Of a stretch of DNA of 64,000 bases, positions 10,701 through 64,000 are shown piece after piece. A program made the translations under genes and the position numbers. The notes beneath the pieces were generated by a model. That model searched no databases. It was given only the letters and a program-made list of their open reading frames with translations, and was not told the origin of the DNA. This stretch comes from Chloroflexaceae bacterium (GTDB lineage: Bacteria; Chloroflexota; Chloroflexia; Chloroflexales; Chloroflexaceae), in contig DAOTUK010000064.1 of assembly GCA_034437375.1 (NCBI GenBank), positions 604 through 64,603 of the forward strand, given 5' to 3'. Every line of letters starts with the position of its first letter. Within the stretch, counting starts at the first letter, position 1.

Positions 10701-10703
10701 ACG

Positions 10704-31434: not shown

Positions 31435-31492
31435 TTATATCACGAAACATATGCCGTGCGGCGTATCGTACGCTAAATTTTTCGTGATATAA
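31435..31492. promoter_or_regulatory. Operator-like perfect 13-bp inverted repeat in the divergent regulator/mrp promoter region
   Basis: TTATATCACGAAA (31435-31447) and TTTCGTGATATAA (31480-31492) are exact reverse complements. A third half-site, ttatatcatg, lies at 31501-31510. Confidence 0.5.
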
Positions 31493-31552
31493 TTATCGTA
31501 TTATATCATGGGACGTATTCCGGTTTTCAGATCTGAATTGTGAGAGGGGCCG

Positions 31553-34309: not shown

Positions 34310-34311
34310 GT

Positions 34312-34653
34312 ATGGATGTGTTGCTGCCCATTGTGATCGGGGGATTGTATGCGTCGGGGTTGTATATGGTGCTGCGGCGCAGTCTGGTCAAGGTCATATT
34401 GGGGTTGTTCCTGCTTGGGCACGCTACGAACCTGCTGCTCTTTTCGGGGGGAAGGCTCACGCAGGGTAAGCCGCCGCTGGTGGCAGAGGGGGCTACGGCT
34501 CCCACCGAGGCGATTGCCGACCCGCTGGCCCAGGCGCTCATCCTGACGGCTATTGTTATCGGGTTTGGGGTACAGGCGTTTGCGATTGTGTTGTTCAAGC
34601 GCACCTACCAGACCGTCCAGACGGATGATCTGGATCGGCTGAAAGGGCAGTGA
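34312..34653 (+). CDS. mrpC: Cation/H+ antiporter subunit C
   Basis: 113 aa with 3 TM spans, NuoK-like. [17 protein letters not shown] motif. Confidence 0.85.
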
Positions 34654-34708
34654 GAGGCGCGGCGACGCGAGGCGAAGAGGCGAGGCTACGTGAGACGAAG
34701 AGGTACCT

Positions 34709-40721: not shown

Positions 40722-40769
40722 CCGATTCACGCTCCTGATACCACAAAGCAACCCAATGCTATAATTATT

Positions 40770-40815
40770 CCCAAAAGCAAAAGAACTCACCCCGCCCGAC
40801 AAACACAGGGGTGAG
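40770..40815 (-). terminator. Terminator-like hairpin plus T-tract on the minus strand, upstream of the crp/fnr start
   Basis: CTCACCCC (40786-40793) pairs with GGGGTGAG (40808-40815) across a 14-nt loop. On the minus strand the hairpin is followed by TTCTTTTGCTTTTGGG (complement of 40770-40785). Confidence 0.3.
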
Positions 40816-41023
40816 CCTTTCCGCACCATTGAACGCTGAACCTATTGTACCAGAGATTGAAGCCGATGCCTACCCTAAACCCACAAAGACATAAACCGGG
40901 ATGACGCCCGGTGTCCTGCTCAAGCGACCTATTGCAATGGGGTGACTGTCTCTTATGGGTAGTTTCGGACGGTACCTTTCGCAAGCGGTGTATGGAGTTA
41001 TGGCCTGATCTCAAAAAAAAGTA

Positions 41024-47690: not shown

Positions 47691-50600
47691 TCATGCGGTT
47701 CCAAACTCCCTGTCCCACAAGGCCAGCAACTCCCGATGGTACGGAACCTGCGCACAAAATGAGCGCCGCAACCGCTCATCTGGTATCCGCGCGGCCCAAT
47801 CCTGCAACTCGCTGCCCGCCTGGGCCAGTACGGCCCGCGCCTGTGCTGGCTCGCCACCCTGCAACACCTGGTAGCAGGTGAGATAGACCAGAAAAGGCTC
47901 ATCGGCGGCAACCAGCGACTCATATGCCAGTAATTGCCCAATCGCTTCCACATGCGCTCGCGCTTCTGTCTCCCGCTCCTGCGCCAGACACACCCGCGCC
48001 AGGCCGGCCCGCGCCTCCATAGCCCGCGTATTCTGTCCCAACTCCTGCCAGATACCCAACGCCTGGGCATATGCCTGCGCGGCGGCGTTCAGGTTCCCTT
48101 GCCCATGCAGCGCGCGCCCCATCACATACGACGCATCCGCTTCCGACAGGCGCGCGCCACTCTCTTGCGCTATCTGCAAAGCCTGGCGGCCATACGTTCC
48201 GGCCGCGTCATACTGTTCGCGCAGCGCGGCGAGCAAGGCCAACCCTGTCAATACCCACCCCTCTTCCGGCAAGGCTCCGATACGCTGGCATATGCCCAAC
48301 GCTTCTTGAAAGGCCGCTTCGGCCGGCCCATAATCGCCCTGGTACAAACACATCCACCCCCGGTTGCCAAAGAACCAGCTTACGCCGCTTTGATCGGCAA
48401 TCGCCTGACAAATCGCCAGTCCTTGATCGTACAGCTTCGAGGCCTGGGCAAAGTGGCCCTGTTCGCGGTACAGTTGGCCCAGATTGCCAAGCGTAATCCC
48501 TTCGCCCCACTGATAGCCAATCTGGCGGTATAAGTTGAGCGCTTGCTGATAATAGGCAATGGCCGTTTCATAATCTTCGCCGGCATCGCTCCCAAGCGAC
48601 TCGAGTGTGCGAGCCTCGCCCTGCAAATCGTTGAGCCCCCGGAAGATGTGCAATGCCTGCTCATCAAAAACCCACGCCTGATCCTCGTTTCCGAGATAGT
48701 ACGCCACCGACGCAAGCTGGCGTAGACACTCCGCCTCTATCTGGGCGTGCTCCCGCTCGCGCGCCAACGTCAGGGCATGCTCTAGCTGCTGCTGCGACTC
48801 CTGGTATGCGCCCTGCAAGCGGAGCGCCATACCCCACCGGACATACCCCAGGGCCTCGTGCCACGAGCTGTCCCCATTGCGCTCCGGGGGCTCGCTCTGG
48901 CGGTGGGCCAGGGTAATGGCCTGCTTGGCCGCCGCAATGGCTACCTTGTACCGATCGGTTGCAATGGCATAGTTGGCCATCCGAAGCGCCGCTTCAGCCT
49001 GTCGCGCTGTATCGTCAAGCTGCGCCGCGAGCGCGGCCAGTTCGGTCAAATCGCGTGACTGTTCATCGCGGGCCCCGCGTAAATCATACACTTGCTCGCG
49101 GGCCAGCAACAGCTCGTACCGTTCAGCATACGCGGTTTCCTCTGTCAGATCAAGGGCGCGGCTCAGGTATTGTATCGCCTCACTATTGGCAAAGCGCTCT
49201 GTGGCCCATAACCCCGCCAATCGTGCATAATATCCCTCGCGGGGCCAGTTTTCGGCTTTGCCATAGTGGTAGGCCAGGTCGGCGTAGTAGGGGGCCAGGT
49301 CTGCGGCGTAGATCTGTTCAATTGCGGCCCCAACTAGCTCGTGCAACTCGCGCAAGCGGGCTCGCAATTGCATCTCATAGGCGGCGTTGTGCAGCAATGA
49401 TTGGCGAAAGACGTACCGCAAATCGCCAACCTGCGACCAGACCCGCTCGCGTTCAACGTTGCGTACCCGTGCAAACACCGACGAATCATCATGCAAAATA
49501 TGTTGGAGTACCTGTACCGCAAATTCGCGCCCAATGACCGACGCGGCTTGAACTACGTGCTTTAACGGTACCGTTAGACGATCCAGGCGAGCAACCAGTA
49601 CCGCCGAAATGCTGGTGGGTACATCGGTTGTGGCCTGGCCCGCCACAAATCCCCAGACGGGCCGGGCCTCTTCTCCGTCTGGACAATCTCCTACCGTTGC
49701 AATGACCTGCCGCTCTCGCAGGTCAAGCAGTAGTTGTTCAATGAAAAAGGGATTGCCGCTGGTGCGCTCGCTGAGGAAGTGGACGAGATCATCACAGACT
49801 GGCCCGGACAAGACCTTGGCGGCATAGGATGCTATTTCTTCAGACGAAAATGGCTTGAGTTCAAGCACTGGATGGGGTACCCGCTCATCTAGCGGTAGCG
49901 CGATCTGATCACTGCCCTGTTGATAGCGGCTGGTAGCCACAATTGCAAAGGGGTACCCGTGCATAGCACGCGAGAGCACCGCCAGCACTTCCATAGAATC
50001 GTCATCCAGCCATTGCAATCCCTCTAATTGTACAACAACGGGTTGACATAAACATTCTGCCTGGAACAGAGTCTTGACCGCCAGCAGGGTATTTTCAAAA
50101 CGTAGTTTCGGCTCCAACTGTTCATACAGCGAGCCTTCCCAATAGAGCCCGACCAGGGCTCCCAGAAAGGAGCGGGTACGATCGATCTCATGCACCAGCG
50201 CATTGGCCATCATGGATGGTTTCAGCTCTACCGCGGCTTTCAAGGCCTCCAACACGGCTTCAAAGCGAGCCTTATTCTCTTCTACCTCATGATCCGCATG
50301 CTGATCAAAATAGTGATATAGCACATAGCGAAAGGGGTTTAAAGACTGGCGTAACACATCATCGGTGGAACAGACCAGCCAGCGTACCCGGAACATTTCC
50401 TGCAAGCGCTGGTGTACTTCATACGCCAGCCGGCTTTTTCCCAGGCCCCCTTCACCATAGACCGTAATAACGCCGGCAAAGGTATACTGAAATATCGGGT
50501 GCAACCACTCGACTAGCCGTAACATAGCCTCTTCGCGCCCTACCATGGGCCCGTGGTGCAAGTGCGCTTCCCCCGCCGATGGCCGATCATCCAGGCGCGC

Positions 50601-51890
50601 CGAGGCGATTGCTCCGCTCTTGCCCTTGAATTGAAACGTGCCGAGATCTTCCAGTTTATAGCGCCGCGCCCGTAAATATCCCGCGACAGGCGCACTCGTC
50701 CATATCTCGCCCCACGCGGCTTGCATCATCAACCGCGCCGCCAGATTGACCACATCCCCAATGGCGGTATACTCGCAGCGCTCATCGCCGCCCATAAAGC
50801 CGGCGTACACCGTTCCTACCGTCAATCCGCCCCGCCACGGTACTTCTGGGGCCCAGGCCCGCAACATTAACAGAAAATCGGCTGCGCGTTCCAGGTTGTT
50901 TTCATACCCGACGGGTGCGCCGAACAAGACCAGCATTACCCCGCCTTTATCGCCAAAGTCGAGCTTGTTGAAATAGCCGCCATAGGCCCCCGTCAATTCC
51001 AGCACGGTGGCGGCAAAGTGGTCTAGCTGGTGCTGCTCGGCTATATGGGCAAAGGAGAGAAACGCGACGGCAACGTCTCGAAACTCGGCCCGTGCCCCGC
51101 TATGCATCAAGTCAAGCACGCTATCGAGCACAAAGCCGGCTACCTCGCGGGGGGCCACGGTGCGGCGGGGCCAGACCTGGGCTGATAGGCCGGGGGGCGG
51201 CTCTCTTGATAAGGCCTCGATTTTGAAGTGTTGCCCGACTGGCCCTGTGGTAACATTGTCTGTGTTCGCAACCATCGCCCGCACCTGGTCGGTGATAACG
51301 ATGTCGCCGCGTTCGGCGTCATGTTCGGCCATAGCACACGCATCAACCGCCGCTCCGCGAAAGAAGTAGGTGAGCCCGCGGGACGCCTCCGCTGGCGCGT
51401 TTGCGTGGGGCTTCAATCCCAGAATACCCCACTCAACCGTCCCCAACCCGACCCCGACTTTGACATTCAACGAGAAGTGGCCATAGCGCGTTGCTATTTT
51501 GCCGTGGCGCACAAAGAACTGTTGTACAAATGCGCCTGCCCAGAGCGCACACTGCGTCGCCTGGGCCGCCCCTACCTCCGCGCCAATGGGAAACAATGCG
51601 GTAAAGGCATCGCCCGCAAAGGTGGTAATAAACCCGCCGTAGTGATATACGGCCTCTACCAGCGGACGAAACACCACATGGAGCGCATCGGTTAAGGCTT
51701 CGGCGCCATCTTTCTGATGCTGCATCAATGTTTCGGTCAAGGCCGTAAATCCAGAAATATCAACAAACAGCGACGCAGCTTCAAACGTTCCGCTAACGCG
51801 CCCTTCCCGATGCCATAGTCCTATGGGATGCGGAATCAGAGCCTCCATACCAACCCGTCTTTCCTCCCAGGCGAATACCACCCGGGCCAA
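47691..51890 (-). CDS. Tandem class III nucleotide-cyclase domains + STAND/AAA ATPase + TPR repeats (signal-transduction regulator)
   Basis: CHD1 has LFVDISGFTALTE and FAGDAFTALF. CHD2 has LDFGDKGGVMLVLFG and YTAIGDVVNLAARLM. The P-loop is VITVYGEGGLGKSRLA. The long C-terminus is TPR-like (repeated A..Y...AL.....G motifs). It ends 46 nt upstream of the giant gene. Confidence 0.85.
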   Translation of the reverse strand: MARVVFAWEERRVGMEALIPHPIGLWHREGRVSGTFEAASLFVDISGFTALTETLMQHQKDGAEALTDALHVVFRPLVEAVYHYGGFITTFAGDAFTALFPIGAEVGAAQATQCALWAGAFVQQFFVRHGKIATRYGHFSLNVKVGVGLGTVEWGILGLKPHANAPAEASRGLTYFFRGAAVDACAMAEHDAERGDIVITDQVRAMVANTDNVTTGPVGQHFKIEALSREPPPGLSAQVWPRRTVAPREVAGFVLDSVLDLMHSGARAEFRDVAVAFLSFAHIAEQHQLDHFAATVLELTGAYGGYFNKLDFGDKGGVMLVLFGAPVGYENNLERAADFLLMLRAWAPEVPWRGGLTVGTVYAGFMGGDERCEYTAIGDVVNLAARLMMQAAWGEIWTSAPVAGYLRARRYKLEDLGTFQFKGKSGAIASARLDDRPSAGEAHLHHGPMVGREEAMLRLVEWLHPIFQYTFAGVITVYGEGGLGKSRLAYEVHQRLQEMFRVRWLVCSTDDVLRQSLNPFRYVLYHYFDQHADHEVEENKARFEAVLEALKAAVELKPSMMANALVHEIDRTRSFLGALVGLYWEGSLYEQLEPKLRFENTLLAVKTLFQAECLCQPVVVQLEGLQWLDDDSMEVLAVLSRAMHGYPFAIVATSRYQQGSDQIALPLDERVPHPVLELKPFSSEEIASYAAKVLSGPVCDDLVHFLSERTSGNPFFIEQLLLDLRERQVIATVGDCPDGEEARPVWGFVAGQATTDVPTSISAVLVARLDRLTVPLKHVVQAASVIGREFAVQVLQHILHDDSSVFARVRNVERERVWSQVGDLRYVFRQSLLHNAAYEMQLRARLRELHELVGAAIEQIYAADLAPYYADLAYHYGKAENWPREGYYARLAGLWATERFANSEAIQYLSRALDLTEETAYAERYELLLAREQVYDLRGARDEQSRDLTELAALAAQLDDTARQAEAALRMANYAIATDRYKVAIAAAKQAITLAHRQSEPPERNGDSSWHEALGYVRWGMALRLQGAYQESQQQLEHALTLAREREHAQIEAECLRQLASVAYYLGNEDQAWVFDEQALHIFRGLNDLQGEARTLESLGSDAGEDYETAIAYYQQALNLYRQIGYQWGEGITLGNLGQLYREQGHFAQASKLYDQGLAICQAIADQSGVSWFFGNRGWMCLYQGDYGPAEAAFQEALGICQRIGALPEEGWVLTGLALLAALREQYDAAGTYGRQALQIAQESGARLSEADASYVMGRALHGQGNLNAAAQAYAQALGIWQELGQNTRAMEARAGLARVCLAQERETEARAHVEAIGQLLAYESLVAADEPFLVYLTCYQVLQGGEPAQARAVLAQAGSELQDWAARIPDERLRRSFCAQVPYHRELLALWDREFGTA

Positions 51891-52429: not shown

Positions 52430-53272
52430 CTAGAGATATTCGCGCTGCGACACGCGCCGCCGCCACTGCTCCTTAATCTCAACCGGGCTGCCCTGGCTCA
52501 CGAGAAAATCCATTAAGATACGGCTAAAGGTTGTACGCTCTTGCAAGAAGGGAAAATGGCTCACGCCGGGTATTACAATCAGTTGATGGGGGCGGCTCTC
52601 TTCTTCGCGCAGGAACATGGCATGATCGGGCGGTACAATCGAGTCCTTCTCGCCATAGGTGACTAATACGGGTATATCGTCGCTTAGTTCTTGCAGCACT
52701 GGCCGCAAGTCGGTGCTCATCATAGAACGCTGCAAACTGTTCACCACCTTTTCGCTCAAGCTCTCGGTATCTTCATAGAGCTCTTGTTGGGTTTCTGCAT
52801 CGTCTATGGGGATCTGGCGTATCAGTTTCGACCAGATGGTCGTGGGGTTGGTATGCCCCAGGAGGCGCGAAAATGTCCCCCGTTTGGTGGCGGCTCCCAG
52901 AATAGAGCCTTGCAATGGCGTCGAGACGAGCATCAAGCGCAAGAAGCGCTCTGGGAATTGGCGTGCGGCACTGGCCGCGACCATACCTCCCAACCCATGC
53001 CCAACGAAGTTTGCGCGGCTAATACCCATCCCATCCATAAAGCGTCGCAACATGTCTACATAGGTTGCAATAGAGGGCGTATCCAGACTCCGATCCGACT
53101 CGCCAAAGCCCCAGAAATCCAGGGCATAGGTGCGGTAGCGGTCGGAGACGTGATCCATGGTGGACACCCAGTAGCGCCACGAGCCAACCCAACTATGCAA
53201 AAAGATAACGGGTTGTCCGCGCCCGAACACTTCATAGTGTACCAACCAGTTGTCGAGATAGATCGCGCTCAC
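52430..53272 (-). CDS. Alpha/beta-hydrolase-fold protein lacking the nucleophile serine
   Basis: VIFLHSWVGSWRYW and ALDFWGFGESD. The nucleophile elbow reads FVGHGLGGMVA, so GxSxG has become GHGLG (Gly93 codon at 52994-52996). The acid (GEKDSIVP) and His (GVSHFPFLQ) positions are retained. 4-nt overlap with the kinase gene. Confidence 0.75.
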   Translation of the reverse strand: MSAIYLDNWLVHYEVFGRGQPVIFLHSWVGSWRYWVSTMDHVSDRYRTYALDFWGFGESDRSLDTPSIATYVDMLRRFMDGMGISRANFVGHGLGGMVAASAARQFPERFLRLMLVSTPLQGSILGAATKRGTFSRLLGHTNPTTIWSKLIRQIPIDDAETQQELYEDTESLSEKVVNSLQRSMMSTDLRPVLQELSDDIPVLVTYGEKDSIVPPDHAMFLREEESRPHQLIVIPGVSHFPFLQERTTFSRILMDFLVSQGSPVEIKEQWRRRVSQREYL

Positions 53273-56200
53273 TCGTCATCCTCATCATGCTCGTCACCGA
53301 TTTCTGGTTGTTCGAGCGGCAAAATAAATCGGAATGTGCTCCCAATACCCTCTTCGCTCGTTACCCACATCTCGCCATTGTGTTGCTCAACCAGCGACTT
53401 GGAGATAGCCAGGCCCAGCCCGGTGCCCCCCACCTGCTCGCGGAGCGGGTTATCGGCCCGATAGAAGGGCCGGAACAGCCGATCCAGTTGCTCTGGCGAC
53501 ATACCTACGCCGGTGTCCTCAACTTCCACCTGGATCATGCCGGCCGGGTTGAGAAAGGCCCGTATGGCAATGCCCCCTTGATCATACGTATATTTTACCG
53601 CATTTGAAAACAGATTAAAGATGATCTGGGTCAGCCGTTTCTCGTCGGCGGTAAATGTTGGTAAATCGTCGGCAATGTCAACCGATACGTGCAAGGTTTT
53701 TGCGTCGGCTTCTAGCTTCAATGACTGTAACACATCGTCAAGCACGTCGCGCAGGTCAACCTGGCCAAAACTCAGCTTGATGCGCCCGGACTCTATCCGC
53801 GACATATCCAGGAAGTCGTTTATCAAGTCCATCAAGCGGTTGGCGTTGGTCTTAATCACCCGCAGGTATCCCACTTGATCAACGCTTAATACGCCCGACG
53901 AGCCAAGCAGGAGTAAATCTACATATCCTTTGACCGAGGTGAGCGGGGTGCGCAATTCGTGCGATACCTTTGAGATAAATTCGCGCTTGGCCCGGTCAGA
54001 TTCAATCTCGCGGGTGATGTCGCGCAACACTGCGACCGTACCATAATTCTGGCCATCGAGCCCGACAACGGGGGCGATGTTCATGGTGATGGTTTGGGGG
54101 CCGGGCGACTTGGGGAGTTCAAAGGACATACTGTAGATAACGCTCTGTTCTGAAATATTCGCTAACCCGGTTTCCAGGCTGCTGTGGAGAATGCGGGCCC
54201 GCTTGCGTTGTTGCTCGGCTTCGCCCTGGGTGGCCAATACGGCCATAGGCTGATTTAAGACCGCCCGCGCGGGAATACCAAGCATCTGATCGGCGGCAAC
54301 ATTGAAGCGCTCTATTTTCTTATCCTCATCCAGCACAATAACGCCTTCGGTCAAGCTCTCTAGAATAGCCTGGCTGCGGCTTGTCTCTTCTTTTTGCAAT
54401 TGCAACAGATCGGACAGCTTGGTGGCGACTTCGTTGAGATAGGCGTAGAGTTGGGCATTATTGGTGGCTATGGCTATTTCGTTGCCTATGGTGGCTAAGA
54501 GGCGCAGTTGTGACTCGGTAAAGTAGTTGACGTCCGGGCTCGAAAGGATAAGCACACCAAGCGTAGAGTCGCTCGTTTTCAAGGGTACGGCTACAATGGA
54601 GCGCACCTCGTCGGCGCGGCCCGCCTCGACCACCCACCGCGTATCCTGGAGCACGTCTGGGATAAGGACGGGTTCTTGATTTTGCATAACCCATCCAACC
54701 AGCCCTTCGCTTCCCCCAAAGGAAATGGGAATTTCGGTACTTTGTACAATCCCCTGTTCTTGCAGGACGGCCCGGCACATGAGCTGGCCGCTTTCCAGTT
54801 CGCGTAGCATGATAGAGCCGCGCGATACTCCCAACTTGTGCGAGGTGACCTCTAACGAGGCATTGATGATTTCTTCGAGATTTAAGGTTGAGGTAAGCTG
54901 CAAGGTGATGGCGTGGACGGTTTCGAGCGAGTCTTTCTCCTGGCGCAACTGGGTATTGGCTTCTTCAAGCTCGGTTGTTCGTTCGGCGACGCGCTGTTCC
55001 AGGTTGGAGGCAAAGGTGGTGATATGCTCAAACATACGGGCATTATCGAGCGCGATACCGGCCCAGGAGGCAATCGTAGAAAGCAGATTTACATCATACT
55101 CGCTATAGGCCTGGTTGCTTTCATAGTTTTGCAACCCGATAACGCCGACCACGGTATCGGCGACGATCATGGGTACCCCCACCCACGAGCGGGGGCGCTG
55201 GTCATACATAGCGCGGTTGCCCAATTCTTCGCGCAGCGCGACATCCCATTCTTCTTGCTCTAGCTCAGAACCCTGGAGCACCAGCGGTGATCGCCGATCT
55301 ATGACCCGCCGGGTCAGGTAGGTGATGAGCATATGCAGGCTTGGGTTCACGCCTGCTTGCCCGCTGTGGTCTTTTTCGCCCCGATAGGCGCTCGACAAAT
55401 CCATCTTCCGCTGCACGCCGCGCTCGTAGAAGAGTGGGAACGAGATTTCCTTGCTAATTTCATCATACAGGGCCATGTAAAAGCCGTTGGTATCAAGCAA
55501 GCGCCCGGTTTGCCGATAGATAAGCTCGGACGGCTCCCCAAAGCGTACTGATGCGCTCAGCTCCTGGCCAATTTCGTTAAAGGTGGCGAGCTCTTCAATA
55601 CGGCGCTCACGCTCGGCAAACAGGCGGATATTGGAAATGGTCACGGCGAGCTGGTTGGTGACGGTGGTGAGAAAGCGCAGGTCGTCTTGATCGAAGGCGT
55701 AGGGTTGGTGGCTATTGACGTTGATAACGCCAAGCACGCTATCGGTGGTTGCAATGGGCACAACCAGGAATGATTGCATGGGCCGCGAGCGGGGGTTTCG
55801 AATGCCCGACTGCCCGGAGCGTACGTCGAAGACCGAACACCCAAACCCGCTCAATCCCATCTGGGCGCATTGTTCGGCGGTGTGAAGCAAGAGTGGTTGC
55901 CGATTGCGAATAGCCCACCCGCCCGGTGTATCTTCGTCGAGTAGCGCGGGGGCAATCTGTACCAGGGTTCCTTGCTCGTAACATACCGGGTAGGAGATAA
56001 CGTTGGTGGCTTCATTGTAGAGCCCGATGAACGATGTACGCATATCTATGGCCTGTTCCAATTCGTGGTACAGGCGTCCAAGCACGACCATCTGGTCAAG
56101 CGTGGAAGAGAGGGCCGTGCCGATGTCTTTCAAGACGGTTATTTCGCGTAGCCGCCGCTCGTGTTCGGTAAATAACCGGGCATTGGAAATGGCTGCGCCG

Positions 56201-58245
56201 GCCTGGCTGGCCACCGTGGTCAAAAAGTGCAGATCATCTTCGCTATACGCATGGGGTCTGGCGCTCTGCAAATTGATAATGCCCAGAACGTCGTCGCCAA
56301 GCAGGATGGGTACCCCAAGCCACGATTGTGGCTCTACCGATAGCCCACAACGCACCTGCTCCATAGGCTGCATAGCGAGAAAGGATTCTATCTCTTCCGT
56401 GGTACGGAACAGCAGCGGCTTGGATTCAAGTAAAATATGGTCAACCAGGCCCTTTCCATCTAACGTAATGGTTTGTTCGCCCACCCGTACCGTATCGGAT
56501 GCCCCGTCGCGTACGACCCGTTGGATAAGCAGGGGCATTTCGCCGGTGGCTTTCACATCATACAGGCCAATAAAGGAAAAGCTGGTATCCAGCACATCGC
56601 TAATACCGCGGTGTAGGACGAGCAAGGTTTCGTCCAGATCAAGGGTGGCATTGACCGAATTTCCAATTTCATTCATCGAGGTGAGCTGGCTAATGCGCCG
56701 CTCTCGATCCTGGAAGAGCCACGCATTTTCCAGCGCGATGGCGGCTTGCCCGGCCAACCCGATCATGAGCATCATTTCATCGGTGCTAAACTGGCGCAGT
56801 TCGCCGGTCATCACGCTCAAGACGCCGATGATGCGCTCGCGGTAAAAGACTGGCACGCCCATAAACGATACGAGCCTGTTGCGCCGATTGAACGAGGGGT
56901 ATAGCGAGCCTGAATGCTCTTCGACATCCTCTATCAGCAAGGGGAGCCCGGTTTCGGCTACTTTCCCCGTCAACCCCTGCCCCACAGGTACGCACATCTG
57001 TTCGGCTTCCGCCTTTGGAATGCCGTACATAGCGGCCGGGCGCAAATAGGCGTCCGCTGCATCAAGTGTCCACAAAGCTACAGTCGAAACCCCAAGCTGT
57101 CGCCGCACCAACTCCATCAGGTTGTTCAAGACCTGATCGGGTTGTAACAATGACCCAAGCAACCGCGCGGCCTCTAACAGGGTCGAAAGCTCGCCCACTT
57201 TGACATGCAAGGCCTGCGCGTGCGTCTGGGATTCTTGAAACAACCGCGCATTTTCGACTACTCTGGCGACCTGGTAGGCTACCGCCTGGGCTGTTTCAAG
57301 CTGTGGGGCGGGCACGACCCCCGGCCGCCCCACAAACCCTAGCTCCAGGCACCCAAGCACCGTACCCGCAACAATCATAGGCAACAGCACGACCGATTGT
57401 ACCCCGTACAACTGGAAGGTTTCATGAAAATTCCGCAACAGCGGCTCTTCCACCACGTTGGAGGAGACGAGCGGCCGCTGGTACGCATCTAACCAGAGGA
57501 TGGCCGGGTTATCTACCAGCGAGTAGGGTATCCATTCCGCATCACTGCCCAGGCCATACCCGGCAACCACGGGCCCGATACCCTTTTTGCGGTTGTAGAC
57601 GACCATACAGGCACGGTCTGCGCCGACAAGCTCGACCAGCGTTTCCAGCACGGTATGGTACATCGTGGCCGCATCGTTGGAGGATGCCGCCAGGCCAGAA
57701 ATACGTTGCAATATCTGGACATCATCCGGTGGTGGTTCCGTGGGGGCCGGTGGGGGTGTCTCCGGCTGGCTATCGCCGTCCGTCCCGCGGTGGCCACGCG
57801 CGCGCTCGTCGCCCTGTGCCCAGACATATTGCCGCTGTATCGCCAGCAGCATGCCAAGCTGAGCGGCCAGGCCTTCATAGAACACGGCGTCATAGTCGGC
57901 GTTGCCATCGTTCGAGAGCAGCAAATAGCCAACGTTGTCGGCGCCGGCCTGCAACGCCACACAGGCCAGGGGGTAGGAATTGTACCCCCGCCCGCTCACA
58001 ACCTCCTGTACCTTTTCCCCCCGCGCACTATCGCTCAATCCCCAACCGGCCGAGGCAGACACCCGTTGGTGATCAATGGCTACCAGCACCCCCCACGAAA
58101 AAGGCAGGTAGCGCTGCAACACCTCGACAATATGGGTTGTAAACAATTGGGGCTCAAGGTATAGAGCATCACCCTGCCCGCACAGAGCAAGATGTGCCAG
58201 CAGTTCCCAATTGTGGGTCTGAGTCGAAGCCATTGTTACATCCAT
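53269..58245 (-). CDS. Multi-GAF/PAS sensor histidine kinase (1658 aa)
   Basis: Repeated GAF-like modules (...GVL.V..........F...D...L...A.Q.A.AI.NA.LF...). A PAS-like segment (ILESLTEGVIVLD). H-box FISKVSHELRTPLTSVKGY. N/G boxes IFNLFSNAVKYT, DTGVGM and GGTGLGLAISKSL. Confidence 0.9.
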   Translation of the reverse strand: MDVTMASTQTHNWELLAHLALCGQGDALYLEPQLFTTHIVEVLQRYLPFSWGVLVAIDHQRVSASAGWGLSDSARGEKVQEVVSGRGYNSYPLACVALQAGADNVGYLLLSNDGNADYDAVFYEGLAAQLGMLLAIQRQYVWAQGDERARGHRGTDGDSQPETPPPAPTEPPPDDVQILQRISGLAASSNDAATMYHTVLETLVELVGADRACMVVYNRKKGIGPVVAGYGLGSDAEWIPYSLVDNPAILWLDAYQRPLVSSNVVEEPLLRNFHETFQLYGVQSVVLLPMIVAGTVLGCLELGFVGRPGVVPAPQLETAQAVAYQVARVVENARLFQESQTHAQALHVKVGELSTLLEAARLLGSLLQPDQVLNNLMELVRRQLGVSTVALWTLDAADAYLRPAAMYGIPKAEAEQMCVPVGQGLTGKVAETGLPLLIEDVEEHSGSLYPSFNRRNRLVSFMGVPVFYRERIIGVLSVMTGELRQFSTDEMMLMIGLAGQAAIALENAWLFQDRERRISQLTSMNEIGNSVNATLDLDETLLVLHRGISDVLDTSFSFIGLYDVKATGEMPLLIQRVVRDGASDTVRVGEQTITLDGKGLVDHILLESKPLLFRTTEEIESFLAMQPMEQVRCGLSVEPQSWLGVPILLGDDVLGIINLQSARPHAYSEDDLHFLTTVASQAGAAISNARLFTEHERRLREITVLKDIGTALSSTLDQMVVLGRLYHELEQAIDMRTSFIGLYNEATNVISYPVCYEQGTLVQIAPALLDEDTPGGWAIRNRQPLLLHTAEQCAQMGLSGFGCSVFDVRSGQSGIRNPRSRPMQSFLVVPIATTDSVLGVINVNSHQPYAFDQDDLRFLTTVTNQLAVTISNIRLFAERERRIEELATFNEIGQELSASVRFGEPSELIYRQTGRLLDTNGFYMALYDEISKEISFPLFYERGVQRKMDLSSAYRGEKDHSGQAGVNPSLHMLITYLTRRVIDRRSPLVLQGSELEQEEWDVALREELGNRAMYDQRPRSWVGVPMIVADTVVGVIGLQNYESNQAYSEYDVNLLSTIASWAGIALDNARMFEHITTFASNLEQRVAERTTELEEANTQLRQEKDSLETVHAITLQLTSTLNLEEIINASLEVTSHKLGVSRGSIMLRELESGQLMCRAVLQEQGIVQSTEIPISFGGSEGLVGWVMQNQEPVLIPDVLQDTRWVVEAGRADEVRSIVAVPLKTSDSTLGVLILSSPDVNYFTESQLRLLATIGNEIAIATNNAQLYAYLNEVATKLSDLLQLQKEETSRSQAILESLTEGVIVLDEDKKIERFNVAADQMLGIPARAVLNQPMAVLATQGEAEQQRKRARILHSSLETGLANISEQSVIYSMSFELPKSPGPQTITMNIAPVVGLDGQNYGTVAVLRDITREIESDRAKREFISKVSHELRTPLTSVKGYVDLLLLGSSGVLSVDQVGYLRVIKTNANRLMDLINDFLDMSRIESGRIKLSFGQVDLRDVLDDVLQSLKLEADAKTLHVSVDIADDLPTFTADEKRLTQIIFNLFSNAVKYTYDQGGIAIRAFLNPAGMIQVEVEDTGVGMSPEQLDRLFRPFYRADNPLREQVGGTGLGLAISKSLVEQHNGEMWVTSEEGIGSTFRFILPLEQPEIGDEHDEDDE

Positions 58246-58502
58246 CCAGGGAAAATCCTTAGTTACCGGTCAGGAACCTGGCCGCAGAGGCCATCCCTGT
58301 TATCGCAATGTGCAACGATACATTGCGTAAAGTGCCTTTGTAGCAGTATAAACGAACCTTGCACGGAAAATATCCAGTGTAAAGATGAGGAGGAGATTAC
58401 GCACGCCACCCCACATCCCACAATACCCGCACGCCCCCTTGCCTTGCCTACCCCCGACGACATACGGCCCATGCTCTCCGACATCCTCTTCAGACGAGCG
58501 CC

Positions 58503-59450
58503 TTACCGTCCCGGTCCGTAGTAGGCAAAACTTTTGTGCCCTTGCTCTCGCGCCAGAGCGCTGGCCTTCTGGCGGAAATCTTCTGCCGCCTCGCTCAGTT
58601 CGCGGATGTCATAAAATGGCCCATCCTTGCTGCTCAAGACGCCAATAGAGAGCGACATTAACGGCACCTGACGCGCAATACCCTGGTCGTCTACCATCTC
58701 AATAAACGCTTGTTTGCGATGTTTATAGTTATAATGCAAGCCGATTTCGGCATCGAAGCGGCTAATCAACCGATCTATAATCGGTTGGATGGTATCCTGC
58801 CCCGTGGTTATCACAAAGTCCGGGCCGACAATCATATGCCCCAGAAAATCTTCGGCGCTCCCAAGCTCGTTGACGACTTCGTTGAGCAACATGGCGGTAA
58901 ACTTTAAGACATCTTCGCTCACCACCGACCCATAGGATTGCGTAAAGGTGTCAAACCCGTTGATATGGAGCAAGGCCAGCACCCAATCCTCTGTCGAGAG
59001 TAGACCGCGCAACTGCTCGTTGATAAGCTCGGCGGTTGGCAAATTGGTGACAGGGTGCGACTGGTTCTTGCGCCGCTCTGCTTCAAGCTGATTTTTGACA
59101 ATAATATTGACTTCTTCAATATCAAAAGGCTTGACGATATAATTTTGCGCCTGAACCTCGCCAAGCCCGCGCAGCCGATCCTGGCGCTCGCCGCGGGCCG
59201 TGAGAAAGATTATCGGAATATGGCGCGTGCGGGGACTATCCCGCAGAGCCTTCCCAATGTCGTACCCTTCCATATCCGGTAGGTTGACATCGAGAAGCGC
59301 GAGATTGGGCGGCGTTTTGCGACAAATATCAAGCGCCTCGCGGCCCCGCATAGCGGTCAATACTTCGTATCCCTGCGAGATAAAATAGATTTTGAGAAGA
59401 CTTGAAATATCCGGTGCGTCTTCAACAACCAGAATTTTTTCCTTTGCCAC
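58503..59450 (-). CDS. Response regulator: intact receiver + degenerate GGDEF-like output domain
   Basis: The REC domain has VVEDAPD, the phospho-acceptor in ALLDVNLPDM (D54), IIFLTARG and YIVKPF. The output domain aligns with GGDEF domains (VTNLPT..., LLHINGFDTF, SLSIGV), but the GGDEF site reads VGPDF (nt 58815-58829). Confidence 0.85.
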   Translation of the reverse strand: MAKEKILVVEDAPDISSLLKIYFISQGYEVLTAMRGREALDICRKTPPNLALLDVNLPDMEGYDIGKALRDSPRTRHIPIIFLTARGERQDRLRGLGEVQAQNYIVKPFDIEEVNIIVKNQLEAERRKNQSHPVTNLPTAELINEQLRGLLSTEDWVLALLHINGFDTFTQSYGSVVSEDVLKFTAMLLNEVVNELGSAEDFLGHMIVGPDFVITTGQDTIQPIIDRLISRFDAEIGLHYNYKHRKQAFIEMVDDQGIARQVPLMSLSIGVLSSKDGPFYDIRELSEAAEDFRQKASALAREQGHKSFAYYGPGR

Positions 59451-59463
59451 AACTCCAATCCTC

Positions 59464-61011
59464 CTAGCAAAGCACTTTCGCAGACGAAGTGGCTCCCGAA
59501 ACCTTCATGGAGTGATGTACCTCTTCTGCATCTTGCTGCCCCACACAATGACTCCCTGAACCAGACCGTTCATCATCAACGCCATCATCATAATACGTCG
59601 CTTGTTCGCGGGTACCCCCGCGCAAGGGATGTTCCCGTTGCGGCCCCTCCCCCAGGGTTGCCCGGTGCTCCGCAGGTTCATACACATGCGGCCAGACAAA
59701 CATTGTGCGTCGGGGTTCGCCGGTTTCTTCATCAATATCGTCAGGGTTCCCGCCGGGGACATTCTTGCGGATAAGCCCCTGCCGATCATCAAAGACTATC
59801 GTCACATTCGATCCTATCATCCGTCCTGGGTACACGACAAAGCCGCTCCCAATTTTACAGTTGTGCCCAACCGCAGAGCCAAGCACCGGTAAGCCCACGT
59901 TGCACAGCTCCCCTTTGTGAAAGGTTTGAATGGGCCGGCCGGCCAGGTCAAAATCGGTAAAGACATTGTTGGCGCCAATGAAGGTATTGCGCCCCACCAC
60001 GCCCAGTTGGACACAGGTATTCTGGGCCAGCATGCCATTTTCCATAATGGAGGACATAAACAGCGCCGAATTAAACGCCATAAATGACCGATCACTAACA
60101 ACGCTCAGCATAATCTGGCTTCCTTGCATAATGTTGACATTGCTCCCAATAATGCTATTGGTTATCACCACGCCCGGCCCAACATAGACGTTATCGCCCA
60201 GGACGGTGGGCCCGTGAATAATAGCGGTCGGGTCTATCGAACAATTTTTGCCAACCTTGACCAGGCTTTTGCTGGAAAGAAAGTGGTTGCGCCAGCGCTC
60301 TTCAAAGGGGTTGATATTCTCCCAGAACGCAGTCAAGACCATCTTCACTTTCTTACCAAACAGGTGCCAGTCTTCGCCTTTCCATTGCGAAAAGCGACGC
60401 AGGCTAGAGCGATCCATTTCATTTTCAATCTGGCTTGCGGCGGCAAACACGCCCATGGGAATATTGGCGAGAAAGATATGCACCCAGTTCTCAATAGAAA
60501 GGAACACGCGCAGCGGTATTTGGAACACCAGATCGCCCTGCTGGATGGCCATATAGCGGGGCACGCTATAGTAGCCCATTTCATACGGTTCGGTATCTAT
60601 AACGATGGGCTGCGGTTTCTGGCGCTCGCCCACCGGGAAGTAGTACATATCGGCAACGTAGACGTTTCCTTCCAGGCGGATACCATCTTGCAAGTGTATG
60701 GCGTGGGTGGTAATAGAACGATCATCCCGGGCAAAGGCTATCTGACAGGCGCTTCCAGTTGCTTTGGCTTTCTCAAGAAAGGCATCAACTAAGCGTTCGT
60801 TAAAGAATAAATTATCTCTATGAACTACTAATTCTTCATCACAATGCGTCGGAATTTCATCTAAGGATGAAACATCGAGCATGCCCTTACAATGGCGGGC
60901 AAGGATGTCTCGTTGCAGCAACCAGAGCGGCTTGTTCAAAATACGCAGATCGCGGGCCGGTTCGCCAAAAGGTGGAATGAGTGTTTTTTCATTTATGACA
61001 ATGCGCTTCAT
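59464..61011 (-). CDS. Nucleotidyltransferase-like N-domain (degenerate) + left-handed beta-helix (hexapeptide-repeat) protein
   Basis: Hexapeptide-type region: VGKNCSIDPTAIIHGPTVLGDNVYVGPGVVITNSIIGSNVNIMQGSQI... and VGRNTFIGANNVF...GSAVGHNCKIGSGFVVYPG. The N-terminus (IVINEKTLIPPFGEPARDLRILNKPL) lacks the G-x-G-T-R motif of sugar-1-P nucleotidyltransferases. I chose the start at MKRIVI (61011). The track ORF extends to 61086. Confidence 0.6.
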   Translation of the reverse strand: MKRIVINEKTLIPPFGEPARDLRILNKPLWLLQRDILARHCKGMLDVSSLDEIPTHCDEELVVHRDNLFFNERLVDAFLEKAKATGSACQIAFARDDRSITTHAIHLQDGIRLEGNVYVADMYYFPVGERQKPQPIVIDTEPYEMGYYSVPRYMAIQQGDLVFQIPLRVFLSIENWVHIFLANIPMGVFAAASQIENEMDRSSLRRFSQWKGEDWHLFGKKVKMVLTAFWENINPFEERWRNHFLSSKSLVKVGKNCSIDPTAIIHGPTVLGDNVYVGPGVVITNSIIGSNVNIMQGSQIMLSVVSDRSFMAFNSALFMSSIMENGMLAQNTCVQLGVVGRNTFIGANNVFTDFDLAGRPIQTFHKGELCNVGLPVLGSAVGHNCKIGSGFVVYPGRMIGSNVTIVFDDRQGLIRKNVPGGNPDDIDEETGEPRRTMFVWPHVYEPAEHRATLGEGPQREHPLRGGTREQATYYDDGVDDERSGSGSHCVGQQDAEEVHHSMKVSGATSSAKVLC

Positions 61012-61294
61012 CGAACAGCCTCTTTTCTTTCTAGCATTTATACGCACACGATGCCCACAAAAACGGAAATCTCCGCTGCCAGGCATGCTACGGCGAGAAA
61101 TTCTTTCACTCTACTAAACGTAAACCCCCAACGATATTTGGTACCTGGCTGGTAGTTACCTACGGCGATGTTGTCTATGGGCTGTTCTTACTATACACAA
61201 TAGAGACAATTCAACTCAAGATCAGGAGATTACGTTCAGGTTACACGCATTCCAAAGCCTTTACTGTCAATTGTACACGATGGTGCATGGAACG

Positions 61295-62296
61295 TCAACG
61301 GATATACTGATCCCACGCGGAAAGGATGGTTGAGAGCTCTGAGAGGGCGGTTTGATCTATGGGGCCTTGCATGCGGGCAATGGCCTGGTGCAACCGGGCC
61401 AGTTGTTCCGCCGTGGGCATGCTCCTATTCATCGCAAGCAGGGTGTGTAATAAGTTTACATAAATAAGTAACAACGATTCTGATGCGCCGCTCCGCGGTT
61501 CGATGGCCCGTAGTTCGGTGTCGAGTTGCTGCCGCACATTGTCCCAGGAGATAAGCGCGGGCATATCGAGGACAACCCGTAGCAGCCGTTCGCAGCGTTC
61601 GACAATAGCGGGCACGCTCTGGTCGTCGTCTGCTGGTGCTGGTGCTGGTACTGGCGCAGCCTCCATCGGAGGGGCGGGGGTGGCGGTAGCACCGTCGGTG
61701 CTGGTGGGCGGCGGTGGCGGGGTATCAGGGATGGAGGAGGGCGGTTCCTGGGGGGGGGGATGCTGTGCCTCCCCAATAGCGGGCGGCCCGTCTAGTGGCT
61801 CTGGCGTGTTGCCACTCCGTTGGTATACCATCTCGATGAGCCGTTCCAGGCCGGCCCGCAAGAGCTGGTCTATTTCCTGGGCATAGGTTATCCAGGCGCT
61901 CATATCCATACGGTAGGGGTCGGGGACATCGCGTGGGCGCCCGGCCAGCGTGCCAAGCGTCACCATACGTTCTGCGGCATCGGCATATTGCCCCCGCAGA
62001 ACGTTCATAATGCTGCTATCTATAGCGAGAATGATAGTCGCGTCTGCGACCATATCGGCCTGGAGCGAGCGGGCCTGGTGGCCGTGCAGAGTTAATCCAA
62101 AGACCGAGCTCATAGCAATGCTGGCATAGCTATCGGCCGGGTCGTCGTCATACCCGATAACGCCGGCTGATGCAACATTCCAGGGCAGGCCGCGTTGTTC
62201 AAACATACGGCGCAGCAAGGAGACGGCCATAGGCGAGCGTCCAGTGTTGGCGCCGCCGACCACAAGTATAGATGGTTGTTCCGCGTCCCTATCCAT
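61295..62296 (-). CDS. LMW phosphotyrosine-phosphatase/ArsC-fold protein lacking the catalytic cysteine, + Pro-rich linker + helical C-domain
   Basis: ILVVGGANTGRSPMA aligns to the CX5R(S/T) P-loop (V-C-T-G-N-I-C-R-S), but both Cys positions are Gly (nt 62234-62257). The Arg, the Ser and the DPY acid motif (VPDPYRMD) are retained. The linker is PPQEPPSSIPDTPPPPPTSTDGATATPAPP. Confidence 0.7.
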   Translation of the reverse strand: MDRDAEQPSILVVGGANTGRSPMAVSLLRRMFEQRGLPWNVASAGVIGYDDDPADSYASIAMSSVFGLTLHGHQARSLQADMVADATIILAIDSSIMNVLRGQYADAAERMVTLGTLAGRPRDVPDPYRMDMSAWITYAQEIDQLLRAGLERLIEMVYQRSGNTPEPLDGPPAIGEAQHPPPQEPPSSIPDTPPPPPTSTDGATATPAPPMEAAPVPAPAPADDDQSVPAIVERCERLLRVVLDMPALISWDNVRQQLDTELRAIEPRSGASESLLLIYVNLLHTLLAMNRSMPTAEQLARLHQAIARMQGPIDQTALSELSTILSAWDQYIR

Positions 62297-62314
62297 AAAA
62301 ATCTGGCTCCCTAT

Positions 62315-63454
62315 TTATGTTCGTAACCGTACAATGAGCCGTTCGCCCTCGCGGGTTGCTTTAATCTTGTTGGTACCCCGGAGCGTGTCTGGCAAGAGAA
62401 TGTGGCGGCGATAGGCGCCGGCGCGTACCACCAGTTCTTCATAGCTCAACGTCAGGCTGAGCGCTTCGCGGGGCAGGCCGGGCAGGCGTATGGCGACAAA
62501 GGGGTCGTTGATGTCGCCCACCTCGATGGGGCTGAGCGCTCCGTAGGTATCGCACGGGTTGTGGGTTCCGTAGAGCGTTTGCCCCAGGGTATGCAGGTGG
62601 TCTATGTTCATCGCGGGCTCTGCAAGGGGCAGGGGCAGGATGGGGCGGGGTTGCCAGGTCTGCGTTGCCCGTGTCACAATATCCTGCTGGTGGGCTGCGA
62701 CGCTGGCTATCGGCGTTTCCGCGGCACCGGTTGGTAGCAAGGGGCCGACAACCAGGGCATCAACCGCCAGGCCATGGAGCTGGAGCGCGGGCAGAGCCTG
62801 GGAGGCTTCATCGAAACCGGTAGCGTCGGGCCGCAGGACATAGCGGGCGGTGGTGTTGCGTACATGCAGAGCGTTATCGCGCAGCGTTTCCAGGAACACG
62901 CGCACATCCTGTATCTTGCCTATCCATTCAAAGGGGAGCAGGTTAGCTGAGATTAGCGCATTGTTCAGCGAGTCGGCGCTACGCCCCGGCCCACGGTCGA
63001 GCCCCAGGATGAGTCGGAGAAACCAGCGGAATCCATCTGGCACCGACATAGCCCGCAAGAACATCTCGTGCGAGCCAGCGTGAATGACGACCACATCGTA
63101 GGAAGCGCCAATGTGTTGAACAATGTATTCTATGCCAAAGAACAGATCGAAGCCCGGCAGAGTCGGCAACTCATCGCCGCTTATCTGGGCCAACACGCCA
63201 AACAGGCGCGGGCGCAGGGTTTCCAACAAGGTCGCCATCCGTCCCAGAACGTCCAGTTCCCAGACATCCAGGTTTGGGGCGACCGTCTGGGGCGCTTCAG
63301 AGCAGACACAGCCAAGCAAGCTCTTCAGCCCATGCGAAGGGCCAATGCTGGCCAGCAGCGTGCGTTGGCCCTGCGAAGCGACCAGCCGGGCGGTTGCGGT
63401 TGCGGCCAGCACGATACCATCACCGCCGCTGCCCGTAAAAATCAGTGTTTGCAT
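62315..63454 (-). CDS. ArsA/Get3-fold ATPase-like protein with degenerate Walker A, fused to HSP20-like C-terminal domain
   Basis: LIFTGSGGDGIVLAATA stands in place of the deviant Walker A GKGGVGKT, and both lysines are absent (nt 63410-63433). YDVVVIHAG is the Walker B region. The C-terminal DPFVAIRLPGLPREALSLTLSYEELVVRAGAYRRHILLPDTL...REGERLIVRL is alpha-crystallin/HSP20-like. Confidence 0.7.
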   Translation of the reverse strand: MQTLIFTGSGGDGIVLAATATARLVASQGQRTLLASIGPSHGLKSLLGCVCSEAPQTVAPNLDVWELDVLGRMATLLETLRPRLFGVLAQISGDELPTLPGFDLFFGIEYIVQHIGASYDVVVIHAGSHEMFLRAMSVPDGFRWFLRLILGLDRGPGRSADSLNNALISANLLPFEWIGKIQDVRVFLETLRDNALHVRNTTARYVLRPDATGFDEASQALPALQLHGLAVDALVVGPLLPTGAAETPIASVAAHQQDIVTRATQTWQPRPILPLPLAEPAMNIDHLHTLGQTLYGTHNPCDTYGALSPIEVGDINDPFVAIRLPGLPREALSLTLSYEELVVRAGAYRRHILLPDTLRGTNKIKATREGERLIVRLRT

Positions 63455-63732
63455 ATGTAGATTTCTTTACCCACCAGTTGTGGTTCAAATTCAGGATTGG
63501 TATGCAATGTGCAGGTCATCATGTGCATGATGCGCTACGTTTCTATTGTTTCTTCTATTGTTATAGTGTACCATGAACTTGCGTCGTAGGTTGCAGATGA
63601 AGCGTAACTGCGAGATAATCAGCACCGGTTGTCCCGCAACGATATGCGATAATAGCGTACAAAATGGTTTATAATGGCCTATTGTCAGTGATTCATCCTG
63701 GGGATATAGCCCGGTGAACACTGGTAGGAAGG

Positions 63733-64000
63733 ATGAAAACTCCTATGACTGGCACATTGCAAGACCAGACGATGGCAGAGTTTCTGAATGCGCTGGCCTC
63801 AAGCGCACCAACGCCCGGCGGGGGCAGTGTTGCGGCGTTTAATGGGGCCATTGCGGCTGGTCTGATCAGTATGGTTGGTAGCATTACGCTGGGGAAGAAG
63901 AAGCCGCCAGAAAATAAAGAGACGGTTGAATCAATCCATGCCCAGGCGGAAGAGTTGCGCCAGCAGTTGCAAGCCCTGGCCCAGGCCGACGTTGAAGTGT
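63733..64000 (+). CDS. Cyclodeaminase/cyclohydrolase family protein (FTCD C-terminal-domain type), 5' part; runs off the window
   Basis: Not in the ORF track because there is no stop in the window. The ATG at 63733 follows aggaagg. It reads MKTPMTGTLQDQTMAEFLNALASSAPTPGGGSVAAFNGAIAAGLISMVGSITLGKKK..., the family signature (LAS..PTPGGGS.AA..GA). Confidence 0.75.
   Translation, partial: MKTPMTGTLQDQTMAEFLNALASSAPTPGGGSVAAFNGAIAAGLISMVGSITLGKKKPPENKETVESIHAQAEELRQQLQALAQADVEV

Follow-up and report, generated by a model that had tools for sequence, protein, structure and literature searches.

Response regulators such as WspR, PleD and DgcR consist of a receiver domain (REC), a helical linker and a domain of the GGDEF fold, and their output is presumably controlled by phosphorylation. 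RsbQ, the partner of RsbP in Bacillus, and D14/KAI2 are small proteins of the alpha/beta-hydrolase fold that are encoded together with signalling partners of the PAS/GAF type and presumably act on them, and they need a Ser-His-Asp triad. The non-catalytic gamma and epsilon subunits of eIF2B combine a nucleotidyltransferase-like domain that has lost the canonical nucleotide-binding signature with a left-handed beta-helix (LbH) domain, and pseudophosphatases of the STYX type carry glycine in place of the catalytic cysteine. Get3d, which occurs in plants and cyanobacteria, combines the ArsA fold with an alpha-crystallin domain; it keeps the Walker lysines and has ATPase activity, as do the Chloroflexi members of this group (PMC10248533). 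Analogues of all these components lie next to each other in a 64,000-nt stretch of DNA from a Chloroflexaceae bacterium (assembly GCA_034437375.1, contig DAOTUK010000064.1; the window, in all that follows), where the region 52430-63454 consists of six co-directional minus-strand open reading frames (ORFs). An earlier note, made from the letters of the window, described these six genes and took five of them for former enzymes that surround a single intact histidine kinase. In our reading, which we hold with a probability of about 0.5 together with the mechanism set out below, the real unit is smaller, namely, a four-gene cytoplasmic module that encodes an LbH protein, a response regulator (RR) with a dead GGDEF domain, a multi-GAF histidine kinase (HK) and an alpha/beta-hydrolase-fold protein (ABH) without the catalytic serine. 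The features of the locus, in the order of transcription, are as follows.

63455..63744, no strand: intergenic region that separates the ArsA-like gene from a divergently oriented FTCD_C gene on the plus strand
62315-63454, minus strand: ArsA-like gene, 379 aa, Pfam ArsA_ATPase and ArsA_HSP20
61295-62296, minus strand: gene for a protein resembling low-molecular-weight protein tyrosine phosphatases (PTP-like), 333 aa, Pfam LMWPc
61012..61294, minus strand: gap of 283 nt that separates the PTP-like gene from the LbH gene; the core operon probably starts here
59464-61086, minus strand: ORF of the LbH gene (gene 59464..61011), 515 aa, Pfam Hexapep and LbH_EIF2B
58503-59450, minus strand: RR gene, 315 aa, Pfam Response_reg and a sub-threshold GGDEF match
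53269-58245, minus strand: HK gene, 1658 aa, Pfam 6 GAF, PAS, HisKA and HATPase_c
52430-53272, minus strand: ABH gene, 280 aa, Pfam Abhydrolase_1

A genome scan with an alignment of the LbH protein yielded 185 loci, the best 80 of which are all named Chloroflexales or unclassified Chloroflexota; the genera represented include Chloroflexus, Roseiflexus, Oscillochloris, Kouleothrix, Chloroploca and Viridilinea, among others. The order LbH-RR-(multi-GAF kinase)-ABH was found in essentially every Chloroflexales locus recovered by tblastn and ORF clustering, with 53-72% identity of the LbH protein across 80 Chloroflexales genomes and 67-79% identity of the RR across the order. The ABH gene follows the kinase gene in 28 of the 29 loci with room for it, and the exact 4-nt overlap of these two genes recurs in 15 of the 22 loci that were scored. 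The same module is present in a contig with a 61%-identical LbH protein (P0067, with a kinase of 3185 aa) and in an Oscillochloridaceae contig with a kinase of 2800 aa. In comparisons with loci L010 and L056, the identity was 73% and 73% for the RR, 68% and 59% for the LbH protein, and 70% and 62% for the ABH, against 61% and 55% for FolD and 58% and 46% for PurD, two housekeeping proteins of the same genomes; the ArsA-like protein (56% and 40%) and the PTP-like protein (40%) did not exceed FolD and PurD. Because the RR, LbH and ABH proteins are more conserved than the adjacent FolD and PurD, they are functional proteins rather than products of decaying genes, and the pattern of conservation indicates that the four-gene module has been vertically inherited throughout Chloroflexales, the filamentous green non-sulfur bacteria, under strong purifying selection.

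These observations also bear on the possibility that the array is a chance juxtaposition of degenerate paralogues, which are common in large genomes. Degenerate GGDEF regulators and hydrolases without serine are individually common, and two of the six genes have no stable linkage to the others. However, the four-gene order, the spacing and the degenerate residues recur in about 80 genomes from several families, partly outside the order; hence, chance is refuted by synteny for the four core genes and remains an explanation for the two upstream genes only, and for the array we consider it extremely improbable.

The RR consists of an intact receiver domain (Pfam Response_reg, E = 2.8e-24), a coiled-coil linker and a domain of the GGDEF fold. 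In 28 sequences there is no variation at the receiver residues E10/D11, D54, T84 and K107. The top Foldseek matches of its AlphaFold2 model (mean confidence, pLDDT, of 77) are WspR, PleD and DgcR, with E-values down to 6e-20, and the correspondence extends across REC, linker and GGDEF. In the profile alignment, H162 and N164 of the RR take the place of the metal-binding D327 and D329 of PleD, VGPDF stands where PleD has GGEEF, and T and E occupy the equivalents of the guanine-binding N335 and D344; the RxxD I-site, five residues ahead of the GGDEF motif, was not found in the RR, which has AEDF at that position. The motifs VGP[DSAE]F and HINGF[DE]xF characterise the 77 RR orthologues, so that the GGDEF site is dead in 77 of 77, and the C-terminal domain is very highly conserved. 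With substitutions at the metal, guanine and GGDEF positions and no I-site, the domain is predicted to be unable to make c-di-GMP, and the output of this regulator should accordingly be neither that of a diguanylate cyclase nor that of an I-site receptor. A class III cyclase identity, considered for this domain because HINGFDTF resembles DIxGFT, was rejected since the top structural and profile matches are all GGDEF proteins.

A dead GGDEF domain might still serve as a receptor for GTP, c-di-GMP or another nucleotide, in which case the RR would integrate phosphorylation with a second messenger instead of docking to the LbH protein. The fold is a bona fide GGDEF fold, the very high conservation of the C-terminal domain fits a ligand pocket, and nucleotide-binding degenerate GGDEF domains are well known, for example, in PopA, PelD and PdeA. 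Nevertheless, the RxxD I-site is missing, the equivalents of N335 and D344 are T and E, the residues that would contact phosphate and metal are replaced, and no c-di-GMP enzymes are conserved nearby, so that we regard this role as very unlikely.

The kinase that follows the RR gene contains HisKA (E = 6e-20) and HATPase_c (E = 2e-30) domains, and the H, N, G1, F and G2 boxes, read from the sequence as SHELRTP, NLFSNAVKYT, DTGVGM, FRPFYR and GGTGLGL, are intact. Together, the kinase and the receiver thus appear to form a catalytically complete His-Asp pair. The kinase is soluble and comprises 1658 aa with six GAF domains here. Among the orthologues, the median length is about 2650 aa and the maximum more than 3100 aa; those in loci L087, L088 and L090 are 2800-3185 aa long. 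Lineages differ greatly in the extent of the GAF array, by expansion or contraction, whereas the identity of the RR remains at about 75%. With respect to these two proteins, the earlier note stands throughout: the intact receiver (D54, T and K) is invariant, the degenerate GGDEF site with changed metal-binding positions (LLHINGFDTF) is borne out by the alignment with PleD, and both the sequence and Pfam corroborate the multi-GAF kinase with intact H, N and G boxes.

The ABH, a clear member of its fold (Abhydrolase_1, E = 1.8e-29), carries glycine in place of serine in the nucleophile elbow, which reads GHGLGG. The segment VGHGLGG aligns with VGHSMGG of a distant orthologue in locus L093 (36% identity, E = 2e-48), which carries GHSMGG and HGW, an alignment that validates the earlier description of GHGLG in place of GxSxG. 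The replacement is uniform, with GHG[LM]GG in 32 of 32 Chloroflexales orthologues, and so is that in the oxyanion motif, where all 32 have HS in place of HG; Asp210 and His239 of the triad are conserved. Because the L093 orthologue keeps the serine, the Ser-to-Gly change can probably be assigned to the Chloroflexales branch, on which catalysis was probably lost.

The LbH protein contains a left-handed beta-helix domain (Hexapep, E = 3e-14), with profile matches to GlmU, gamma-carbonic anhydrase, CcmM and the LbH domain of eIF2B-epsilon. In its N-terminal domain, IPPFGEPARDLR is found where GxGTR..PK would be expected and is invariant in the family, and no Pfam NTP_transferase match was obtained for this domain. 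The AlphaFold2 model, built from an alignment of 16 sequences, is poor (pLDDT 52) and confident for residues 30-140; its Foldseek matches are weak (E >= 3e-3), and all are to sugar-1-phosphate nucleotidyltransferases, so that a nucleotidyltransferase-like nature of the N-terminal domain is weakly supported by the model. Dozens of invariant polar residues are spread across both domains. Active sites of LbH families vary between families and are located at trimer interfaces, and the protein may still be catalytic given that the invariant polar residues would fit an enzyme equally well.

The latter observation introduces another explanation, under which the partners are not pseudoenzymes and the four genes make up a small operon for metabolism or modification that is controlled by a two-component system, with the LbH protein acting as an acyl- or nucleotidyl-transferase with a non-canonical motif and the ABH employing Asp-His base catalysis. 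Serine-independent dioxygenases and decarboxylases of the alpha/beta fold, such as HOD/QDO and MKS1, exist, and the ABH retains Asp210 and His239. The conservation of the LbH protein exceeds that of FolD and PurD, and its invariant polar residues number in the dozens. Furthermore, distant modules combine a serine-intact ABH with a thioester reductase resembling AAR (acyl-ACP reductase) and PigE that has the cysteine and the Rossmann motif, which suggests an ancestral lipid- or thioester-related chemistry. However, both the Ser-to-Gly and the oxyanion HG-to-HS replacements extend to all 32 Chloroflexales orthologues of the ABH, the signatures GxGTR and PK, shared by every characterised sugar-1-phosphate nucleotidyltransferase, are missing from the N-terminal domain of the LbH protein, and no substrate-supplying genes are conserved nearby in Chloroflexales. 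We view a metabolic operon as a possible but doubtful account of the module.

The two upstream genes behave differently from the core. The PTP-like protein (LMWPc, E = 3.9e-17) has the P-loop GGANTGRS, which aligns with CTGNTCRS of YwlE such that neither cysteine is kept, whereas the P-loop Thr and Arg and the DPY loop are; R20, P125 and D126 are invariant, and the loop, G(G/A)A(N/D)TGR(S/A), is without cysteine in 22 of 22 orthologues. Among its top PDB matches, YwlE is the best characterised, and the single best match is 4egs, deposited as RpiB. The C-terminal portion of about 110 aa (window 61295-61700) is a conserved helical domain that follows a proline-rich linker and belongs to no Pfam family; its invariant residues are R234, P246, Y279 and L302. 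Of 83 LbH loci, 27 have the PTP-like gene at a distance of no more than 10 kb from the LbH gene. A metagenome scan that started from the PTP-like protein recovered 65 loci; where full 10-kb flanks were available, LbH-RR was nearby in 6 of 22 loci, and the other 16 lacked the module, the remaining neighbours being unrelated housekeeping genes. Directly upstream of LbH, 27 loci with the names Chloroflexaceae, Chloroflexales or Oscillochloris have a PTP-like gene, and 20 loci, most of them named Roseiflexus, Roseiflexaceae or Kouleothrix, have a gene for a 215-aa cysteine-rich V4R protein. In another 18 loci, among them the Chloroflexus and Chloroploca ones, UvrA occupies this position. The idea that the PTP-like gene functionally replaces V4R in the same slot is unsupported, most PTP-like genes being located elsewhere.

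In the ArsA-like protein, compared with Get3 of M. thermautotrophicus, GSGGDGIV is found at GKGGVGKT and H-AGSHEM at the switch II motif D-TAPTGHT. The architecture is of the Get3d type, an ArsA fold with a C-terminal HSP20/alpha-crystallin domain, and the best PDB match is NosGet3d (3igf/8egk, Nostoc All4481), aligned in two stretches, with an NCBIfam NosAFP score of 98 that is far under the cut-off of 325. The P-loop varies in nearly every relative and is without lysine in all 7. Because Get3d proteins normally keep the Walker lysines, the ArsA-like protein is best classified, judging from sequence, as a divergent Get3d-type paralogue. With 40-60% identity, it is a fast-evolving protein. About 10 of the module loci contain its gene, which is often located 2-4 kb upstream of the PTP-like one. 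In an Oscillochloris metagenome-assembled genome (MAG; L089:1094-2235), it is represented by two ORFs, a 335-aa ArsA_ATPase and a 55-aa ArsA_HSP20, which suggests a frameshift or decay in some lineages. The PTP-like protein may bind phospho-residues, and the ArsA-like protein may be chaperone-like.

Can all six genes nonetheless form one pathway, in which five former enzymes serve as sensors or scaffolds around a phosphorelay, as the earlier note proposed? The six share one orientation and follow a single divergent intergenic region, the order FTCD_C, ArsA-like, PTP-like, LbH is found again in relatives from Chloroflexaceae and Oscillochloris despite inserted genes, and the PTP-like site, although Cys-less in 22 of 22 proteins, preserves Arg, Thr and DP[FY]. 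However, the PTP-like gene is not within 10 kb of the module in loci named Chloroflexus, Roseiflexus or Kouleothrix, 16 of its 22 fully flanked loci, among housekeeping genes, are devoid of the module, and the ArsA-like gene, found in about 10 loci, is fast-evolving, with a variable P-loop and a split into two ORFs in one Oscillochloris contig. We therefore think that a six-gene pathway is quite unlikely. The PTP-like and ArsA-like proteins are separately conserved Chloroflexales proteins, loosely attached upstream, and not demonstrable members of the module.

The proposals of the earlier note can be judged against this background. Its folds are confirmed by Pfam and NCBIfam, the nucleotidyltransferase-like N-terminal domain of the LbH protein being the weakly supported exception, and its degenerate sites are real: alignments to Get3 and YwlE verify the missing Walker lysine and the missing cysteine, and the changes are fixed in the orthologues of the RR, the ABH and the PTP-like protein. 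The absence of GxGTR from the LbH protein also holds, but its status as a pseudoenzyme does not follow, given the very many invariant polar residues, so that the count of five pseudoenzymes was an overstatement. That the array is no coincidence is correct for LbH-RR-HK-ABH, the order of which recurs in about 80 genomes, and not for the PTP-like and ArsA-like genes. Likewise, a pathway of former enzymes around a phosphorelay survives to the extent that the four-gene sub-cluster is conserved; the six genes are not one unit, with the PTP-like gene linked in 6 of 22 loci and the ArsA-like gene in about 10.

Relatives of the module extend beyond Chloroflexales. In an exhaustive search of representatives at 50% identity, the LbH protein matched only 41 clusters with E <= 1e-30, one of which has an Anaerolineales MAG member. 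Loci L090, L092 and L093 keep the LbH protein, the dead-GGDEF RR and the multi-GAF kinase, so that the module appears to be related by sequence to modules in other Chloroflexota. In L090, the order is V4R-LbH-RR-x-kinase (at least 3011 aa), with GTPase, Roadblock, V4R and MreB genes upstream; in L092, it is LbH, AAR/PigE-like thioester reductase, RR and kinase (at least 2988 aa); and in L093, the genes for PATAN, small GTPase, ABH, V4R, LbH, AAR-like, RR and kinase are tightly packed. The GGDEF site of the RR is degenerate in all three, reading GGSDF, GGDNF and GQENF, respectively. The LbH relative in L091 (34-39% identity) has no RR or kinase nearby and marks the edge of the module.

The AAR-like genes of the distant loci (L092:3322-4431 and L093:4483-5610, 369-375 aa) are located between the LbH and RR genes and resemble the N-terminal domain of PigE and the cyanobacterial acyl-ACP reductase (NCBIfam 3e-59 and 3e-26), with a Rossmann GxGxxG motif and a cysteine that aligns, by eye, with the catalytic cysteine of AAR. 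Polarity-type neighbours, namely, PATAN, MglA-like GTPase, Roadblock/LC7, V4R and MreB, occupy L093:208-3175 and L090:1217-6337. No V4R, small GTPase or AAR-like genes were detected in the 64-kb window. The distant neighbours hint at cell polarity or at gliding and filament behaviour. A more far-reaching proposal is that the LbH protein, the dead-GGDEF RR and a giant multi-GAF kinase with V4R and ABH partners constitute an ancient Chloroflexota-wide signalling device made of enzyme-derived receptors and adaptors, in which the Chloroflexales ABH turned into a pure receptor, and which feeds into small-GTPase/PATAN polarity control of gliding filaments; we offer this as a speculation that is unlikely to hold.

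For the four-gene module proper, we infer the following sequence of events. The GAF array would sense intracellular ligands or the metabolic state, and the kinase would phosphorylate D54 of the RR. The dead GGDEF domain would then provide a dimerisation or docking surface controlled by phosphorylation, with the co-translated LbH protein as its putative target, and the LbH protein could be either a regulated effector enzyme or a scaffold comparable to eIF2B-gamma/epsilon. The ABH, translationally coupled to the kinase, would serve the kinase as a subunit that binds a ligand without hydrolysing it or that has a regulatory role, and presumably descends from an active hydrolase of the kind that one distant relative retains.

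Several observations weigh against this interpretation. The partners are assigned from gene order and translational coupling, and gaps of 283 nt and 257 nt precede the LbH and HK genes. The ABH, with the Asp-His pair kept, could be an enzyme with a base-catalysed activity. The LbH model, with a pLDDT of 52, gives neither a ligand site nor a mode of RR docking. The upstream neighbours vary, including UvrA, V4R, PTP-like and glycosyltransferase genes, and the hint at polarity or motility comes from three distant metagenomic loci rather than from Chloroflexales themselves.

The upstream limit of the co-directional array is the divergent intergenic region 63455..63744. The start of the LbH gene was placed at M26 of the ORF, position 61011, because the exact-product look-up returned the shorter form only. 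The gap between the LbH and RR genes is 13 nt, whereas 257 nt and 283 nt lie ahead of the HK and LbH genes, and the 4-nt overlap between the HK and ABH genes, which the earlier note had recorded, is confirmed, as are the coordinates of all six genes. A sigma-70-like match (10/12) at 61298-61270 lies in the gap between the PTP-like and LbH genes, with the number of promoter-like matches in the region at chance level. Because the counts of promoter and terminator patterns are at or below the shuffle expectation, the operon boundaries are putative. The Rfam scan of 51-64 kb gave no match, no tRNAs are present in the window, and none of the six proteins has membrane segments. Contigs identical to this one originate from microbial-mat metagenomes and MAGs, and in the LbH genome scan the nearest relatives with a name are Chloroflexaceae MAGs.

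Downstream of the array on the same strand, the next gene (47691-51890, minus strand) encodes tandem class III cyclase domains, the first with intact DISGFT/AGD metal motifs and the second degenerate, followed by AAA_16 and TPR repeats, and beyond it lies the gene for a 2018-aa protein with 13 FG-GAP/VCBS-type repeats (41588-47644, minus strand); a Crp-family cyclic-nucleotide-binding regulator is encoded at 39972-40829. None of these three genes is a conserved neighbour of the module. Elsewhere in the window, 9369-13092 and 28463-36208 are compositionally distinct. The former, low in GC (0.46-0.47), contains Wzm/Wzt-type ABC polysaccharide export genes and a 470-aa ORF without a family. The latter is strongly AT-skewed, and the skew at 28-38 kb reflects membrane-protein coding, given the genes for a membrane protein with an O-antigen-ligase domain and for Mrp/complex-I-type antiporter subunits.

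If the Chloroflexota-wide device proposed above is real, it would represent a previously unrecognised class of two-component output, which operates via a beta-helix protein and not through DNA binding or c-di-GMP. The four proteins provide a defined candidate set for such non-transcriptional, non-c-di-GMP output. Chloroflexales are key mat-forming phototrophs in which signalling is almost unstudied, and the module, which matches housekeeping genes in conservation, pairs giant kinases with an RR whose output domain, by its sequence, should not be a cyclase. These kinases, whose GAF repeats can exceed 3100 aa, are among the largest soluble sensor kinases known. The ABH, with serine in one distant relative and invariant glycine in Chloroflexales, would be a clean natural example of the conversion of an enzyme into a regulator.

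The earlier note knew of no described system of such composition. Searches of the literature on Chloroflexus two-component clusters, Chloroflexi degenerate-GGDEF regulators, V4R/Roadblock/MglA/GAF and PATAN/gliding, and the survey of prokaryotic small GTPases, likewise yielded no description of this module. Still, each component has well-known analogues, and the module belongs to a familiar category, that of two-component systems with accessory proteins. Organisational analogues are the actinobacterial conservons CvnA-D, which likewise consist of a histidine-kinase-like sensor with fixed accessory proteins that do not bind DNA, and small GTPase and Roadblock genes adjoin the distant relatives of the module. 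However, the accessory proteins differ, and both the Chloroflexales module and the window lack a GTPase. Among the upstream proteins, the ArsA-like protein shares the ArsA_ATPase-ArsA_HSP20 architecture with Get3d, but lacks the Walker lysines and the switch II Asp. The PTP-like protein keeps the P-loop Thr-x-Arg and DP[FY] of the protein-arginine phosphatase YwlE and shows the Cys-to-Gly replacement of STYX, but, unlike these, is a two-domain protein, with an extra conserved helical C-terminal domain that belongs to no family. The LbH protein has a Pfam LbH_EIF2B match, and eIF2B is also one of its weak Foldseek matches; it is, however, a bacterial protein for which no specific sequence relationship to eIF2B is detectable beyond the common folds. 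In contrast to RsbQ-RsbP and D14/KAI2, the serine of the ABH is glycine in all Chloroflexales orthologues, and its partner is a histidine kinase. Finally, the RR has its best structural matches in WspR, PleD and DgcR, but differs from these, as well as from PopA, in the loss of the metal Asp, the guanine-binding residues, GG(D/E)EF and the RxxD I-site; it is thus predicted to act neither as a cyclase nor, like PopA, as an I-site receptor, and its gene is fixed beside that of the LbH protein.

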